NCBI GenBank assembly: GCA_964291235.2
Contig: OZ219816.1
Location: 864,001 to 928,000, forward strand
Source: Vicinamibacteria bacterium
GTDB lineage: Bacteria; Acidobacteriota; Vicinamibacteria; Marinacidobacterales; Marinacidobacteraceae
DNA length: 64,000 bases
Direction of reading: 5' to 3'
The notes under the pieces were generated by a model. That model searched no databases. It was not told the DNA's origin and saw nothing but the letters and a program-made list of their open reading frames with translations. Position 1 is the first letter of the stretch. The number at the start of each line of letters is the position of its first letter. Both the position numbers and the translations under genes were made by a program. This document shows, in pieces, positions 3,617 to 60,918 of the stretch.

Positions 3617-4804
3617 ATGACCGATCCCGCAATCCATCTCGCCCAGCGTATTTCTGCGATTTCTCCCTCGCCGACGATGGCGGTCATGGCGGAGGCGATG
3701 CGCCTTCGCGCCGCCGGAGAGAACGTGGTGGACTTTTCGGCCGGACAGCCCGACTTCGATACGCCGTCGCTCGCGAGGGAGGCCGGGATCCAGGCCATCG
3801 AATCGGGATACACCCGGTACACCCCGAACCCGGGGGCGCCCGATCTGCGGGCGGCGGTCGCTGATTGCTACCGGCGCGACTTCGACCTCGACTTCGGGGC
3901 CGGCAACGTCCTCATCACCTCGGGAGGCAAGCACGCTCTCACCGGGTTGTTGCTCGCCACCTGCGAGGAAGGGGACGAGGTGGTGATCCCGACGCCCTAC
4001 TGGCCGACCTTCCCCGAGCAGGTGAAGATCGCCGGGGCCGCGCCGGTCCTCGCCCGCGCCGGAGAAGAGAGCGGGTTCCGGCCCACCCGGGACGTCATCG
4101 AGCCAGCGATGACCGATCGCACCCGGTGCATCATCTTCAACATTCCGGGGAATCCGTCCGGGGTGGTGCTCTCGGCGGGTGAGTTGGAGGCGGTGGCGCA
4201 CCTGGCGCTCGAGGCCGACGCCTACCTGCTCTGGGATGACACCTACGCCCGGCTCACCTTCGAGCCGGCGCCGGAAGGCGCCTACCGGCGGATGCAGGAA
4301 ATTCTCGGACACCGGTTCGTCATTGCCGGCGGAGCCTCGAAGACCTACGCCATGACTGGCTGGCGGCTCGGGTGGGCGCTCGGCCCGGAACCGGTCATCA
4401 AGGGCGCCGCCTCGCTGCAGAGCCAGATGACGTCCAACGCGAGTTCCATTTCACAAAAGGCGGCGCTCGCCGCGGTGACGGCGGACCCCGCCGGTTTCGC
4501 CTGGATGACCGAGGAGTTCGCCCGCCGGATGGTGCGGATGCGGAACGGCCTGCTGCAGATCGAGGGGCTCCGCTGCGGGCCCGCCGACGGCGGCTTCTAT
4601 CTGTTCCCGAACTTCGAGGCGGTCCTGCGGCCGGGCGAAGGGTCCGGCGAGCTCGCTGCCGCGCTGCTCGACGAGCAGCGGGTCGCCACGGTGCCGGGAG
4701 TGGCCTTCGGCCACGACACCCACCTCAGGCTCAGCTACGCCACTTCGGACGAGATCATCGACGAGGGCGTGGGGCGGATCCGGCGGTTCTTCGCGGCGCG
4801 CTGA
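3617..4804 (+). CDS. Class I/II PLP-dependent (aspartate-type) aminotransferase
   Basis: GQPDFDTP, YTPNPG, NPSG, SKTYAMTGWRLG (PLP lysine), LRLSYA. Confidence 0.92.
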   Translation: MTDPAIHLAQRISAISPSPTMAVMAEAMRLRAAGENVVDFSAGQPDFDTPSLAREAGIQAIESGYTRYTPNPGAPDLRAAVADCYRRDFDLDFGAGNVLITSGGKHALTGLLLATCEEGDEVVIPTPYWPTFPEQVKIAGAAPVLARAGEESGFRPTRDVIEPAMTDRTRCIIFNIPGNPSGVVLSAGELEAVAHLALEADAYLLWDDTYARLTFEPAPEGAYRRMQEILGHRFVIAGGASKTYAMTGWRLGWALGPEPVIKGAASLQSQMTSNASSISQKAALAAVTADPAGFAWMTEEFARRMVRMRNGLLQIEGLRCGPADGGFYLFPNFEAVLRPGEGSGELAAALLDEQRVATVPGVAFGHDTHLRLSYATSDEIIDEGVGRIRRFFAAR

Positions 4805-4933
4805 GACGGCGAACCTACGGTCGGAACCACTACCCCATACAGAGCAACGAGCGGGCCGTCCCTCCGCCATTGGTCCAGTCTGCACGCGATCGAGAAGCTA
4901 AGGGGCGGGACCTGCGCGGCAACCGTTCCTAGC

Positions 4934-5033
4934 TAGCCCGGATTTCTCATCCCTCCGTCGTAGAGATCTATGCAGGATGGTTCCCCTCTCGGCGAGAACC
5001 CAACTAGCCTTGATGTCGGACAGGCACGGGAGC
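4934..5033 (+). repeat. Left part of a composite intergenic repeat, homologous to 44481-44629 and interrupted by IS110 copy 1
   Basis: TAGCCCGGATTTCTCAT...CGTAGAG...GGATGG.CCCCTCTCGGCG...CTAGC.TTGATGTCG recurs at 44481-44615 on the same strand. Confidence 0.8.
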
Positions 5034-5286
5034 CCCCTATAGGATCGGCGACGTCCTGCGGGAGCCGAGATTCGGCTGCCGTTGTATCAACTCAGGTTGG
5101 CCAATCCGCCGGGAGTACTAACTGAGCCCCGGTGCCGCGAGCACCTACGGTGGACACGTACCCCGACGGATGGCCGTGATGGACGACCAGTGGAGAGTCG
5201 GTTCCAATCGAGAACCAGTATAGGGGCTGGACAGCATCGCGGCGCGGCGGACCTCCGGCGGAGCGCAAGCTCGAAGGAAGACAGCG
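5034..5286 (+). ncRNA. Candidate bridge RNA in the IS110 left non-coding end (copy 1)
   Basis: 253-nt non-coding end with several hairpins. AGCCGA-GAT-TCGGCT (5063-5077) reads AGCTGA-GAT-TCAGCT in copy 2, a compensatory change. Expression and exact ends are not visible from sequence. Confidence 0.65.
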
Positions 5287-6549
5287 ATGAAGCAGAAGCT
5301 GAGCTGGTTCGTGGGCATCGACTGGGGCGAGCAGAGCCACCAGGTGTGCCTGTGCGACAGGCGCGGGAAGGTGCGCGGGGAGCGCGCCTTCGCGCACAAG
5401 GGATCGGGGCTGGCGGCCCTGGTGAAGTGGCTTAGGAAGCAGACGGGTGTGCCGCCGGCGCGGGTGGCGGTCGCGATCGAGCGGCCGGATGGGGCGGTGG
5501 TGGCGACGCTGCTGGAGGCGGGGTTTGCGGTCTATGCGGTGAACCCGCGGCAGACGAGCCACCTGCGGAAGTTCATCTCCCACCCGGGGCACAAGAACGA
5601 CCGGCGGGACGCCCGGATGTTGGCCACCACGCTGCAGGCGAGCCTGGCGGGGTTCCGCCTGCTGGTGCCGCTACCGGGGTTGGTGCTGCGGCTGCGGGAG
5701 CGGACCCGGACGGCGGACCGTCTGCTCCAGGAGCAGGTCCGGCAGTGCCTGCGGATCCGGAGTGCGCTGGTGGACTACTTCCCGCAACTGCTGGAGGTGG
5801 CCGGCGAGGCGAAGAACCTGGGGGCTCCGTTCTTCCGGGAGTTGTGGGCTCGGGCTTCTACGCCGGCGAAAGCGCGGAAGGTGTGGTTGTCCACGTTGGA
5901 GAAGCTGGTCCGGCGGTATGGAGTGACCCGGATCAGCGCCGCGCGGATCCAGGCGTTGTTCCGGGAGCCGGCGCTGGTGATGGCGCCGGGGGCGACCGAG
6001 GCGGCGGTGGAGACGATCCGCACGGCGCTCGCACAGTTGGAGGTTGTGCGGGCGGAACTCGTCCGGGCGGAGGGCCAGATGACCCAACTGCTGGACGAGT
6101 TCTCGGAGACGGCGGAGGCCGGGGGTGGTTCGGATGCCACGGGCCCGGATCTGGTGAGCGCGTTGCGCTCGCGCCCGGGCGCGGGGGACAAGGCGCTGGC
6201 CCGGTTGTTCGCCTGGGGCTTCGAGGCGCTCTCGGAGGGGAACTACCGCCGTCTGCGCGCCTACTGTGGGGTAGCCCCGATCGAGGACCAGTCCGGCAAG
6301 TCCGCACAGCTCCGGCAACGGCGCGCCGTTCCCAGTTCGCTGCAACACGCCACCTACATCCTGGCGCGGGGGGTCGTCCGCTGGGACGAGAAGGTGGCGG
6401 CCTACAACCGGAAGTTGAAGGCGGAAGGGAAGCACACGGCCCGGCGCCACCGGAGCATCGCGGATCAACAACTCCGGGTGCTGTGCGCGATGGCCCGGAA
6501 CCGAACCCTCTTTGATCCCAACTTCTCCCAGAAGCGGAGGGCCGCCTAA
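5287..6549 (+). CDS. IS110-family DEDD transposase/recombinase
   Basis: FVGIDWG (D), AIE (E), KNDRRD (D..D) in the RuvC-like domain; C-terminal AYCGVAPIEDQSGK with the conserved serine. Confidence 0.95.
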   Translation: MKQKLSWFVGIDWGEQSHQVCLCDRRGKVRGERAFAHKGSGLAALVKWLRKQTGVPPARVAVAIERPDGAVVATLLEAGFAVYAVNPRQTSHLRKFISHPGHKNDRRDARMLATTLQASLAGFRLLVPLPGLVLRLRERTRTADRLLQEQVRQCLRIRSALVDYFPQLLEVAGEAKNLGAPFFRELWARASTPAKARKVWLSTLEKLVRRYGVTRISAARIQALFREPALVMAPGATEAAVETIRTALAQLEVVRAELVRAEGQMTQLLDEFSETAEAGGGSDATGPDLVSALRSRPGAGDKALARLFAWGFEALSEGNYRRLRAYCGVAPIEDQSGKSAQLRQRRAVPSSLQHATYILARGVVRWDEKVAAYNRKLKAEGKHTARRHRSIADQQLRVLCAMARNRTLFDPNFSQKRRAA

Positions 6550-6589
6550 CGCTCTTGCGTTCTCGTGGAAAGTCCACCGGGAGAACTGG

Positions 6590-6743
6590 GCCGGCCTCCA
6601 GGCCGGCACAGCCCGCCGCAGGCGGGCGGCGGGACGGACCTGTCTGGCCAGGATGGCTCCCTCTCTCGGAGAGGACCCCGTGAGCGCGAGCAGCGAGGAA
6701 TCGCCCGCGGCGCTGCGCGCCGCGGTGCCGACCTGGAGGTCGG
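6590..6743. repeat. Inverted pair of REP-like palindromes with a conserved spacer
   Basis: GCCGGCCTCCAGGCCGGCAC (6590-6609) and GTGCCGACCTGGAGGTCGG (6725-6743); the whole unit is homologous to 44630-44784. Confidence 0.85.
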
Positions 6744-7070
6744 AGCCCGGCCCGTGCGGGAGCCTGAGTGCCGCGGCTGCTCCGCGTCCACCATCGGGCC
6801 GATCTGCGAATGGACCCGGCTGCGCCAATGCATCGAGGGCCAGCCAGCGGGTGGTTGGGCGCTCTCCGGCCCTGAGGGTGACAGAAATGTCGCTGTGGGG
6901 ATACCGGCCGGAGGTGAACATGTCGCAGTGGCCCGATTTCCGGGCTCAGCATGTCGCAGTAGCGGCACCGGCGCGGTGGAATCTGGGGCAGTATCGGAAC
7001 CGGCGCGTCAAGAGACACTTCCAGGCAGTTGGGAGACACCTACTCTTGCGCACTGCGGGGGTGAAGAGCG

Positions 7071-7310
7071 ATGCGCCGCCCGCGGGCCTGCGGCCCGCTG
7101 TGCCGGCCTGGAGGCCGGCGTTCCCGTGCCGGTGGTGCTGGGGGGGGCTGGAGGGCGACGTGCGTTTCGCTCCCCGGTGGGGAGCGATGCCGGCCGGAGG
7201 CCGGCGCTCCGCTGTCGCGCGTTGTCGGGATGGGGCGCGGTGCGCCGCCCGCGGGCCTGCGGCCCGCTGTGCCGATCTGGAGATCGGCGTTCCCGTGCGG
7301 GCGGTGCTGT
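7071..7310. repeat. Cluster of three REP-like palindromes (BIME-like)
   Basis: REPs at 7100-7130, 7188-7210 and 7269-7298. 7071-7140 is duplicated at 7241-7310; 7153-7211 recurs at about 60692-60750. Confidence 0.85.
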
Positions 7311-44483: not shown

Positions 44484-44784
44484 CCGGGATTTCTCATACT
44501 GCCGCCGTAGAGGTCGCCGCGGGATGGTGCCCCTCTCGGCGGGACCCCCACCAGGGGGCCTTCGCCGGGAGTTCGCCGGGAGCACTGGGCACGGCCCCCC
44601 TAGCGTTGATGTCGCAAAGGCCAGGGAACGCCGGCCTCCAGGCCGGCACAGCCCGCCGCAGGCGGGCGGCGGGATGGGCCTGGCTGGCCGGGGTGGCTCC
44701 CTCTGTGGGAGGGGATCCCGTGAGCGCGAGCGGCGAGGAACCGCCGGCGGCGCTACGCGCCGCTGTGCCGACCTGGAGGTCGGC
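44481..44784 (+). repeat. Composite intergenic repeat with an inverted REP pair; its first REP is the empty homolog of the IS copy 1 site
   Basis: Collinear with 4934-5033 joined to 6590-6743; REPs at 44630-44649 and 44765-44784. Confidence 0.85.
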
Positions 44785-44824
44785 CCAGTTCTCCCGGTGG
44801 ACTTTCCACGAGAACGCAAGAGCG

Positions 44825-46087
44825 TTAGGCGGCCCTCCGCTTCTGGGAGAAGTTGGGATCAAAGAGGGTTCGGTTCCGGGCCATCGCGCACAGCACCCGG
44901 AGTTGTTGATCCGCGATGCTCCGGTGGCGCCGGGCCGTGTGCTTCCCTTCCGCCTTCAACTTCCGGTTGTAGGCCGCCACCTTCTCGTCCCAGCGGACGA
45001 CCCCCCGCGCCAGGATGTAGGTGGCGTGTTGCAGCGAACTGGGAACGGCGCGCCGTTGCCGGAGCTGTGCGGACTTGCCGGACTGGTCCTCGATCGGGGC
45101 TACTCCACAGTAGGCGCGCAGACGGCGGTAGTTCCCCTCCGAGAGCGCTTCGAAGCCCCAGGCGAACAACCGGGCCAGCGCCTTGTCCCCCGCGCCCGGG
45201 CGTGAGCGCAACGCGCTCACCAGATCCAGGCCCGTGGCATCCGAACCACCCCCGGCCTCCGCCGTCTCCGAGAACTCGTCCAGCAGCTGGGTCATCTGGC
45301 CCTCCGCCCGGACGAGTTCCGCTCGCACGACCTCCAACTGTGCGAGCGCCGTGCGGATCGTCTCCACCGACGCCTCGGTCGCCCCCGGCGCCATCACCAA
45401 CGCCGGCTCCCGGAACAACGCCTGGATCCGCGCGGCGCTGATCCGGGTCACTCCATACCGCCGAACCAGCTTCTCCAACGTGGACAACCACACCTTCCGC
45501 GCTTTCGCCGGCGTAGAAGCCCGAGCCCACAACTCCCGGAAGAACGGAGTCCCCAGGTTCTTCGCCTCGCCGGCTACCTCCAGCAGTTGCGGGAAGTAGT
45601 CCACCAGCGCACTCCGGATCCGCAGGCACTGCCGGACCTGCTCCTGGAGCAGACGGTCCGCCGTCCGGGTCCGCTCCCGCAGCCGCAGCACCAACCCCGG
45701 TAGCGGCACCAGCAGCCGGAACCCCGCCAGGCTCGCCTGCAGCGTGGTGGCCAACATCCGGGCGTCCCGCCGGTCGTTCTTGTGCCCCGGGTGGGAGATG
45801 AACTTCCGCAGGTGGCTCGTCTGCCGCGGGTTCACCGCATAGACCGCAAACCCCGCCTCCAGCAGCGTCGCCACCACCGCCCCATCCGGCCGCTCGATCG
45901 CGACCGCCACCCGCGCCGGCGGCACACCCGTCTGCTTCCTAAGCCACTTCACCAGGGCCGCCAGCCCCGATCCCTTGTGCGCGAAGGCGCGCTCCCCGCG
46001 CACCTTCCCGCGCCTGTCGCACAGGCACACCTGGTGGCTCTGCTCGCCCCAGTCGATGCCCACGAACCAGCTCAGCTTCTGCTTCAT
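44825..46087 (-). CDS. IS110-family DEDD transposase/recombinase
   Basis: 420 aa; I see 3 differences from copy 1 (LGAP/LGTP, EAAV/EASV, TGPD/TGLD). Confidence 0.95.
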   Translation of the reverse strand: MKQKLSWFVGIDWGEQSHQVCLCDRRGKVRGERAFAHKGSGLAALVKWLRKQTGVPPARVAVAIERPDGAVVATLLEAGFAVYAVNPRQTSHLRKFISHPGHKNDRRDARMLATTLQASLAGFRLLVPLPGLVLRLRERTRTADRLLQEQVRQCLRIRSALVDYFPQLLEVAGEAKNLGTPFFRELWARASTPAKARKVWLSTLEKLVRRYGVTRISAARIQALFREPALVMAPGATEASVETIRTALAQLEVVRAELVRAEGQMTQLLDEFSETAEAGGGSDATGLDLVSALRSRPGAGDKALARLFAWGFEALSEGNYRRLRAYCGVAPIEDQSGKSAQLRQRRAVPSSLQHATYILARGVVRWDEKVAAYNRKLKAEGKHTARRHRSIADQQLRVLCAMARNRTLFDPNFSQKRRAA

Positions 46088-46340
46088 CGCTGTCTTCCTT
46101 CGAGCTTGCGCTCCGTCGGAGGTCCGCCGCGCCGCGATGCTGTCCAGCCCCTATACTGGTTCTCGATTGGAACCGACTCTCCACTGGTCGTCCATCACGG
46201 CCATCCGTCGGGGTACGTGTCCACCGTAGGTGCTCGCAGCACCGGGGCTCAGTTAGTACTCCCGGCGGATTGGCCAACCTGAGTTGATACAACGGCAGCT
46301 GAATCTCAGCTCCCGCAGGACGTCGCCGATCCTATAGGGG
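46088..46340 (-). ncRNA. Candidate bridge RNA in the IS110 left non-coding end (copy 2)
   Basis: Homolog of 5034-5286; the 4 substitutions seen all preserve or improve hairpins. Confidence 0.65.
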
Positions 46341-59764: not shown

Positions 59765-60463
59765 TTACTTGTAGTAGTTGACCCCGATCATGGCCTGCTG
59801 CGTGCGGAAGGAGAAGTCTTTCGATGACCAGAGGCGGTATTCCGCGCGCGCCGACAGGTAGGAGAAGACATAGACCTCGAAGCCGACGGCGATGTGCGCG
59901 GTGGGCGCGTAGGTCGTGTGCTCCAGGGTGATCTCGTTTCCGATGGGAACCCGGATCCGGAAATTCGTCTGTTGATCGTCCGCGGGATCGGTCGTCTCGT
60001 AGATGAAATCCTCCCGGAGTTCATCCCGCCGCACGATTCCGGCTCCGGCAAGGACGTACATCTGGAACGGCTGGCGCCTCCCGAGGTGGTACACGACGGA
60101 CCCGTCCAGGTGGTACCGATTGGTCCGGAACTGGTATGCGGGTTCCGCCACCACATCCTCGACCGCATCGTTGGTCGCCGTGTAGCGCCGGTTGGAGCGC
60201 CCGAAGAAGACCCCGGTGGCGATACTGAAGCGCTCGGTCGCCCGAAACGCCGCCGTTCCGCCGATTCCGGCGCCCCTTCCCGGACTCAGTTCGGGACGCG
60301 CGAAGAACTGGAGCCCCGCCCCGGCGAACAGTCGGAATTTATGGTCCTGGCCGGTAGCCGGGGCTGCCGCCAGCAGCACCAGAGCCACGAATACAGGGGA
60401 AAAAGCCGCGCGGAGGCGGCTACGCCGCGCCGTCGGCAGGGGGATGTCTTCCGGCGCTGTCAA
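59765..60463 (-). CDS. Outer-membrane beta-barrel protein (OmpA/OmpW-like 8-stranded type)
   Basis: Signal peptide, amphipathic strands, MYVLAGAG, SARAEYR and aromatic C-terminus. Confidence 0.7.
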   Translation of the reverse strand: MTAPEDIPLPTARRSRLRAAFSPVFVALVLLAAAPATGQDHKFRLFAGAGLQFFARPELSPGRGAGIGGTAAFRATERFSIATGVFFGRSNRRYTATNDAVEDVVAEPAYQFRTNRYHLDGSVVYHLGRRQPFQMYVLAGAGIVRRDELREDFIYETTDPADDQQTNFRIRVPIGNEITLEHTTYAPTAHIAVGFEVYVFSYLSARAEYRLWSSKDFSFRTQQAMIGVNYYK

Positions 60464-60563
60464 ATCGGTCGGAATGCTACTCCACCGCGAGCGGTCCGGG
60501 AGCGGGGCACCTCAGAGTCTCCGCCCGATGCGCGATTTGGAACGGAGCGGAGTCCCATTGCGA

Positions 60564-60750: not shown

Positions 60751-60918
60751 ACGCTATGTCGGCGTAACGCCCCTGTGCCTGCGCCCCCCACCGGGAGAAC
60801 GGGCGCCAACCGAACTCGCTCGCGCGCTGACGCGCACCTCGGCGAGCAGCGAACGGAGTTCGCCGCCGTCAATCCCTACGCCGTGGGGCTGCGCCACCCC
60901 CTCCGCTACCCTGTCGCA

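Follow-up and report, generated by a model that had tools for sequence, protein, structure and literature searches.

The closest described counterpart in architecture is IS621, whose bridge RNA system has been proven experimentally (Durrant et al. 2024, PMC11208160; Hiraizumi et al. 2024, PMC11208158). IS621 has a recombinase with a DEDD and a Ser domain, and the left end, upstream of the gene, encodes its RNA. In this RNA, a 5′ stem-loop is followed by a target-binding and a donor-binding internal loop (TBL and DBL); the 5′ sides of the loops have the sense of the left halves of target and donor, and the 3′ sides are complementary to the core and the right halves. A two-base core, CT, stands at both junctions. 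IS110 recombination requires a core common to both junctions, and in IS621 pairing with both core bases is preferred (PMC11208160). The two bases after each 3′ guide, the handshake bases, pair with the other DNA after strand exchange (PMC11208158), and the first handshake base of the IS621 DBL is a G opposite the T that ends the left donor. The IS621 target lies inside a repeated palindromic element, and repeated palindromes are usual insertion sites for the IS110 family (PMC11208160). Reportedly, ISPpu9 (PMC12288879) and ISPpu10 (bioRxiv 10.64898/2026.03.19.712850) of Pseudomonas putida, both of the IS110 family, insert into many-copy intergenic palindromes, and for ISPpu10 the target stem-loop adds specificity beyond base pairing. 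In the IS1111 group, the guide RNA lies in the right end, with the recombinase family and guide logic as in the IS110 group (PMC11208160).

Herein, we analyzed a window of 64,000 nucleotides (genome G000, contig C2, positions 864001-928000) from an uncultured acidobacterial lineage, Vicinamibacteria. By computation, the IS621 features recur at this locus, namely the domains of the recombinase, the place of the RNA, the order of stem-loop and loops, the strand sense of the loop sides, a two-base core at both junctions, the handshake guides (including the G opposite the T ending the left donor), and a target inside a repeated palindrome. However, the core is CC, and the left guides would pair with the first core base only. 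We consider it highly probable that 5058-5253 encodes an IS110-group bridge RNA and that the ends of its element are at 5038 and 6575. The kind of RNA is already known, and this member is new; a limited literature search found no bridge RNA described from this lineage.

Two inverted copies of the insertion sequence (IS) lie in the window, and five in the genome. The copies in the window and the gene of the first are as follows.

5038..6575, + strand: IS copy 1, 1538 bp with one core copy, reading TATAGG...GTGGAAAGT-CC
44799..46336, − strand: IS copy 2, other haplotype, with the predicted bridge RNA core at 46281-46117 (169.7 bits with the covariance model R1)
5287..6549, + strand: recombinase gene, 420 aa, with a DEDD RuvC-like domain and a Transposase_20 domain

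Identity among the five copies is 99-100%, and each has an intact 420-aa reading frame. The non-coding left end is 249 nt long and carries the putative RNA, whereas the right end has only 26 nt (6550-6575); the element is therefore assigned to the IS110 group and not to the IS1111 group. In the 83% orthologue (L006-L011, record OZ220713.1), about 240 nt separate the stop codon from the core, compared with 26 nt here.

The recombinase matches PF01548 (DEDD_Tnp_IS110) at E = 4e-28 (residues 9-166) and, in its C-terminal part, PF02371 (Transposase_20) at E = 1.4e-8 (residues 292-373). It also passes narrowly the NCBIfam equivalog NF033542, ‘IS110 family RNA-guided transposase’, with 141.6 bits against a cut-off of 140. 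The closest solved relatives are both distant. The best is ISCro4 (PDB 9t56, E = 1.9e-7), likened by protein alone and at low identity, for which the N- and C-terminal domains align with motifs including FxGID, D..DA..LA, and SGxS; IS621 (E = 2.4e-6) aligns over the N-terminal part only, and its protein has 328 aa compared with 420 here. FVGID and NDRRDARMLA of the recombinase align to ISCro4, and its SGKS aligns with the SGSS of ISCro4, suggesting that the conserved serine in the Transposase_20 domain may be the catalytic one.

The stretch 5058-5253 is repeated at about 46316-46121 on the minus strand, in copy 2. Between the 253-nt left ends, 5034-5286 (+) and 46340-46088 (−), there are exactly four differences (5066 C/T, 5074 G/A, 5136 C/T, and 5258 G/A), the same four that an earlier, sequence-only reading of this DNA had counted, and all the strings that it quoted were found where it had placed them. 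Its compensatory pair in AGCCGA-GAT-TCGGCT (5063-5077) is real, with C5066-G5074 becoming T-A in the other copy. However, the five genomic copies form two haplotypes (L001 and L002 versus L003 to L005), with all four differences common within each, so the pair marks one event, a haplotype split, and not repeated covariation. The T at 5136 can indeed add a T-A pair to the GGTGC/GCACC stem (5131-5145), as had been proposed.

The ends of the element, as defined by computation, are as follows.

5030..5037, + strand: left half of the target, GAGCCC (5030-5035) followed by core CC (5036-5037), based on unoccupied repeats and the match of the left target guide (LTG)
6564..6575, + strand: right end of the element, left donor (LD) CGTGGAAAGT (6564-6573) followed by core CC (6574-6575), with the match of the left donor guide (LDG)
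6576..6593, + strand: right half of the target repeat, outside the element, ACCGGGAGAACTGGGCCG, the same bases as after CC in unoccupied repeats

The sequence-only reading had placed the element at 5034-6589 (CCCCTATA...AACTGG), without a core repeat, in a REP sequence GGGAGC|GCCGG, and had let TATAGGGGC and AACTGAGCCCC read the junction AACTGG|CCCC and CGGGAGC and GGAGCGC read the target. Identity among the five copies does span approximately 5022 to 6612, a shorter REP form, GGGAAC|GCCGGCC, is common (~200 copies), and TATAGGGGC is the exact 9-nt reverse complement of the hypothetical junction. But the outer common bases are those of the target repeat, which occurs on its own, with no element in it, about 120 times. 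Such solo repeats are made up of the first bases plus the last 14-16 bases of the supposed element; unoccupied copies read GAGCCC-CC-ACCG, and there are many GAGC-CCCCACCGGGAGAACTGG-GCCG copies without any element. When the solo repeats are read as empty sites, the target is therefore GAGCCC-CC-ACCG and the element (CC)TATAGG...GTGGAAAGT(CC). Thus, the element is CC|TATAGG...GGAAAGT|CC with a CC core, from 5038 to 6575, and not 5034-6589; the target repeat accounts for the 14 bases ACCGGGAGAACTGG (6576-6589) as well as for the CC at 5034-5035. The circle junction predicted earlier, G|CCCCTATA, fails together with the 5034-6589 ends, and the real left junction has five C (GAGCCCCCTATA).

Further flanks agree with this definition. 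The core CC is present at both junctions (5036-5037 and 6574-6575) and once in empty sites, whereas no base is repeated at the 5034/6589 ends, though a common core would require one. Both flanks of the paralogous empty site C2:1533274 are the same as those of copy 1. Among the six copies of the 83% orthologue, L008 is in a different repeat context, and the right flank of L006 diverges after GGGAGAA, where identity is lost inside the supposed element. The right junction in homologues reads LD-CC-RT, where RT is the right target. In the genome, 21 perfect 12-bp target sites are free. A TSD-type reading of the 5034-6589 ends, assuming GC or GCC as the core and GGGAGCCGGCC as the target, was also tried and was rejected, as none of the 18 genomic matches looked REP-like. 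No circle junction or excision product was found over 4900-6700 in the contigs of four sequencing runs; these contigs break at repeat borders, and joints came only from other REP repeat copies.

Within the left end, computation gave the following fold and the elements following it.

5058..5082, + strand: 5′ stem-loop of the predicted bridge RNA, holding C5066-G5074, with covarying pairs in the orthologue alignment A1
5095..5253, + strand: core of the predicted bridge RNA, with a closing helix of 5095-5102 and 5246-5253 (R1 169.6 bits, E = 1e-30)
5104-5171, + strand: target-binding arm inside the closing helix, with an internal loop and an inner hairpin
5173-5243, + strand: donor-binding arm inside the closing helix, with an internal loop and an inner hairpin
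5261..5272, + strand: small hairpin GAGC-GCAA-GCTC, with a GNRA loop kept in orthologues
5273-5280, + strand: purine-rich ribosome-binding stretch, directly after the small hairpin and before the recombinase start codon

The left end is kept, with many paired changes, in orthologues at 83%, ~64-65%, and 37% protein identity. The structure was drawn on a MAFFT alignment of 12 homologues, in which 86% of cells were paired, compared with 36-41% when the partners were slid; both sides were changed in 17 pairs compared with 7.7 in shuffles, a number that none of 500 shuffles reached. The covariance model R1 was built from this structure, and its search of 38 sources gave 43 matches, 38 of them at E values of 1e-30 to 3e-5; the remaining five (E ≥ 0.08) were taken as chance. 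We kept 31 matches at E ≤ 1e-4, all distinct, as the model-aligned set A4. One of the rows, L032, is from a genome flagged as unpublished, and no conclusion rests on it. In A4, the paired cells amounted to 85.3% (32-41% with partners slid), and 33 of the 43 pairs were compensatory, with both sides changed, which was again reached in 0 of 500 shuffles. Since A4 was fitted to the structure of R1 and consists of related sequences, the MAFFT alignment provides the more independent evidence, and the homologue counts overstate independence because the homologues are related. A covariance model on homologue ends was one of the checks that the sequence-only reading had suggested, and its outcome supports that reading's guide RNA.

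The R1 matches read as upstream of the recombinase match, according to coordinates compared at a few loci. Both arms are enclosed by the covarying closing helix (helices 1-2), and a closing helix around both arms is not known for IS621. The single-sequence fold of 5034-5290 gave z = -1.04, which is uninformative alone. An Rfam scan of 4800-6900 with E up to 10 returned only unrelated families, the best at E ≥ 3.4. The substitution at 5258, which had been assigned to the loop of a CTCCG-N-CGGAG stem, is real, but this stem would have a one-base loop and is not kept in orthologues; GAGC-GNRA-GCTC (5261-5272) is kept instead. A weak R1 match was observed at 60413-60537 on the minus strand (E = 0.083), covering the target arm without the donor arm and adjoining REP copies and one copy of the 18-nt repeat CCCCACCGGGAGAACTGG; it is probably a chance match.

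By its sequence, fold, and covariation, the left end is thus a predicted bridge RNA. To assign its guides, we applied the published rules on the strand of each loop side, the common core, and the handshake guides (PMC11208160 and PMC11208158).

5124..5130, + strand: LTG GAGCCCC, in the sense of the left target GAGCCC plus the first core C
5148..5155, + strand: right target guide (RTG) CGGT with its core-binding GG (CGGT-GG, 5148-5153, matching CC-ACCG), followed by the handshake AC; as a whole, the reverse complement of GT-CC-ACCG at the right junction
5190..5199, + strand: LDG GTGGAGAGTC, with 9 of its 10 bases matching the right end GTGGAAAGTC (6565-6574)
5219..5226, + strand: right donor guide (RDG) TATA with its core-binding GG (TATA-GG, 5219-5224, matching CC-TATA), followed by the handshake GG; as a whole, the reverse complement of CC-CC-TATA at the left junction

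The odd position of the LDG is a G-T wobble against the bottom strand, that is, one non-Watson-Crick position, and in the 83% orthologue all 10 bases of the LDG are matched. The LTG (7 nt) stops one base before the end of the core, and G5131 faces the second core position, with which it cannot pair. The LTG and LDG thus reach the first core base only, as is also the case in several homologues.

The loop segments of each homologue were compared with its own flanks. Among 27 guide-distinct elements, the left end could be located in 20 and the right end in 18. The longest exact match of the LTG with its own left flank averaged 7.55 nt (20 elements), compared with 3.78 nt for 358 non-cognate pairs, only 4 of which reached 7 nt; in two of the 20 cognate pairs (L025 and L027), the match was just 4 nt. 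For the RTG and its own right junction, the mean was 7.94 nt (n = 18) compared with 4.20 nt for 274 non-cognate pairs, only two of which reached 8 nt; a single mismatch cut the cognate match to 4 nt in 3 of 18. The LDG itself served to locate the right ends of homologues (at most one mismatch in 8 was allowed), which makes its own match partly circular, whereas the adjacent RT match is independent. In L042, the core is CT, and the RTG, the RDG, and both junctions change along with it. The handshake bases followed the opposite DNA. Here, AC (5154-5155) fits the GT ending the left donor, and GG (5225-5226) fits the CC ending the left target. Across elements, the final base of the left target can pair with the first DBL handshake base in 18 of 20, and the final LD base can pair with the first TBL handshake base in 16 of 18, both misses in the latter case being rows in which an indel shifted the slicing; pairing of the TBL handshake bases with their own target occurred in 0 of 12. 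Guide-target covariation had likewise been named as a check, and the loop segments do covary with the flanks of each homologue. Together with the structural covariation, this supports the earlier proposal that the non-coding left end would encode a bispecific IS110 guide RNA.

A related element was observed in two genomes of the same genus (L031 in G026 and L030 in G062), with a recombinase at 37% identity and the LTG GGCGTTCC(C). Its insertion site is the REP palindrome itself, in the other strand (…GGCGTT-CC|TATAGG), and related elements in one genus thus target different parts of one repeat system.

These comparisons also bear on whether the left end is just a structured 5′ leader or promoter region controlling recombinase expression, with flank complementarity that has no guiding role. 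None of the listed sequencing runs is recorded as RNA, and a hairpin and a ribosome-binding stretch stand directly before the start codon. But a leader is not expected to covary with DNA outside the element, whereas these loop segments track their own flanks and the handshake positions track the opposite DNA, in an architecture equal to that of the experimentally proven IS621 bridge RNA. We therefore regard a mere leader as very improbable.

The guides assigned to the 5034-6589 element fared differently from the RNA itself. TATAGGGGC had been taken as a guide reading the junction and was right in kind, since it comprises the RDG, core-binding, and handshake bases (TATAGGGG), which explains why it was the best match found; 8 of its 9 bases match the real junction, and the ninth, a C, fits only the wrong junction, by chance. 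The other three of the four assignments are wrong. AACTGAGCCCC (5120-5130), read as a match to the donor, holds the left target guide GAGCCCC instead, and its AACTG part is missing from the 83% orthologue even though the flanking repeat is the same there; in orthologue G050, where the right end is still ...AACTGG, the loop AGCCGAGCCCC contains no AACTG. CGGGAGC (5059-5065) and GGAGCGC (5260-5266), read as target guides, lie in the stems of the 5′ stem-loop and the 3′ hairpin and are no guides; two 7-mer target matches were observed compared with 1.75 expected from 2000 shuffles of the left end (P = 0.47), that is, the chance level. Moreover, the LDG matches GTGGAAAGTC, 14 bases inside the proposed right end, and the RTG matches CC-ACCG, which that anatomy places inside the element. 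Taken with the solo repeats, this leaves the 5034-6589 anatomy scarcely credible.

For the bridge RNA of the element 5038-6575, the family suggests the following mechanism. In the RNA, the 5′ stem-loop would precede two arms that share one closing helix. [quoted passage not shown] The donor arm would read the joined ends of the element, GTGGAGAGTC (5190-5199) with the right end GTGGAAAGT-C and TATA-GG (5219-5224) with CC-TATA at the left end. The handshake bases AC (5154-5155) and GG (5225-5226) would each fit the other DNA, as in IS621, and the DEDD/Ser recombinase (5287-6549) would exchange strands at the common CC core. In this way, a circular element may have been inserted into GAGCCC-CC-ACCG, inside the abundant 18-nt hairpin repeat. 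Transcription of the RNA, its binding by the protein, and recombination would be expected by analogy with the family.

Whether the RNA and recombinase are now relics of a once-active bridge system, immobile in this genome, can be judged from several observations. There are only five copies, the second core position is unpaired in the LTG, and no promoter was recognized: neither a sigma-70 consensus promoter nor an intrinsic terminator was found in 4900-5350 of the integrated left end, and the computed joined ends hold only a weak promoter-like TTGCGT-17-TAGGAT. Against a relic stand the near identity of the five copies with their intact frames, the stem kept by a compensatory change between the two haplotypes, and the 21 perfect target sites that remain free. 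Immobility is thus rather improbable.

The target repeat was examined in its own right. The 18-nt hairpin repeat CCCCACCGGGAGAACTGG has 121 copies in the genome with up to one mismatch, and the reversed pattern has none; examples in the window are 6574-6593 and 60786-60803 (minus strand). Of 28 genomes of the family, 22 contain it, including all 15 examined from the genus, where the number per genome ranges from 8 to ~1,570 copies. The commonest flanks, GC and GCC, give GGCCC...GGGCC, a 5-bp stem with a 14-nt loop. Several unrelated REP-like families contain the repeat, which also forms tandem and inverted pairs, and no strand bias was seen along the two contigs. At least three diverged IS lineages, including the 83% and ~64-65% orthologues, have guides for it. 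In its insertion into a repeated palindrome, the element resembles ISPpu9 and ISPpu10, although the host phylum and the repeat are different.

An origin of CCCCACCGGGAGAACTGG as the footprint or miniature of another IS110 element was considered and rejected. Beyond the five IS copies, no further PF01548 gene or R1-type RNA was found in the genome, and the repeat is therefore not a footprint of this element either. It is also abundant in genomes where the query found no recombinase homologue (87 copies in G023, 65 in G044, 49 in G029, and 747 in G098), and comparison of short and long forms in two REP families revealed no duplicated border base.

REP-like sequences of the form GGCACGGGAAC|GCCGGCCTCCAGGCCGGCACAGC number ~200 in the genome. 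The REP-like palindrome GTGCCGGCCTGGAGGCCGGCGTTCCCGTGCC was seen, in one orientation, at 7090-7130, 44640-44680, and 6590-6612 and at ~200 places in the genome, and the two REP copies beside the IS differ by a compensatory hairpin pair, 6594 G/A with 6603 C/T. At each of the five insertions, the occupied repeat copy is followed by the REP hairpin GCCGRMCTCCAGG, a context shared by 5 of the 21 free perfect sites (hypergeometric P = 0.004, where the IS copies may not be independent). This preference hints at a resemblance to the stem-loop gate reported for ISPpu10. It is a tentative and rather doubtful idea that the CCCCACCGGGAGAACTGG repeat serves as a dedicated landing pad whose maintenance or spread goes along with that of bridge-RNA elements, and that the neighboring REP hairpin acts as a further gate on which perfect 12-bp site is chosen.

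The known mechanism of bridge recombination is unchanged by this finding. There is, however, a general trap for the anatomy of such elements: when an element sits in a repeat, identity between its copies overshoots the true ends, and guides inferred from the overshot ends are wrong. The present element adds a dissected natural bridge RNA from an uncultured lineage of Acidobacteriota, with all four guides, both handshake pairs, the CC core, and the closing helix. The target that it naturally uses is resolved to single bases, and the 21 free perfect sites are at hand for tests. Guide rules, such as pairing with the first core base only, could be studied in the 31 homologues and their paired flanks. 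If gating by the REP hairpin is true, it would be a structure-plus-sequence rule like that of ISPpu10, but in Acidobacteriota.
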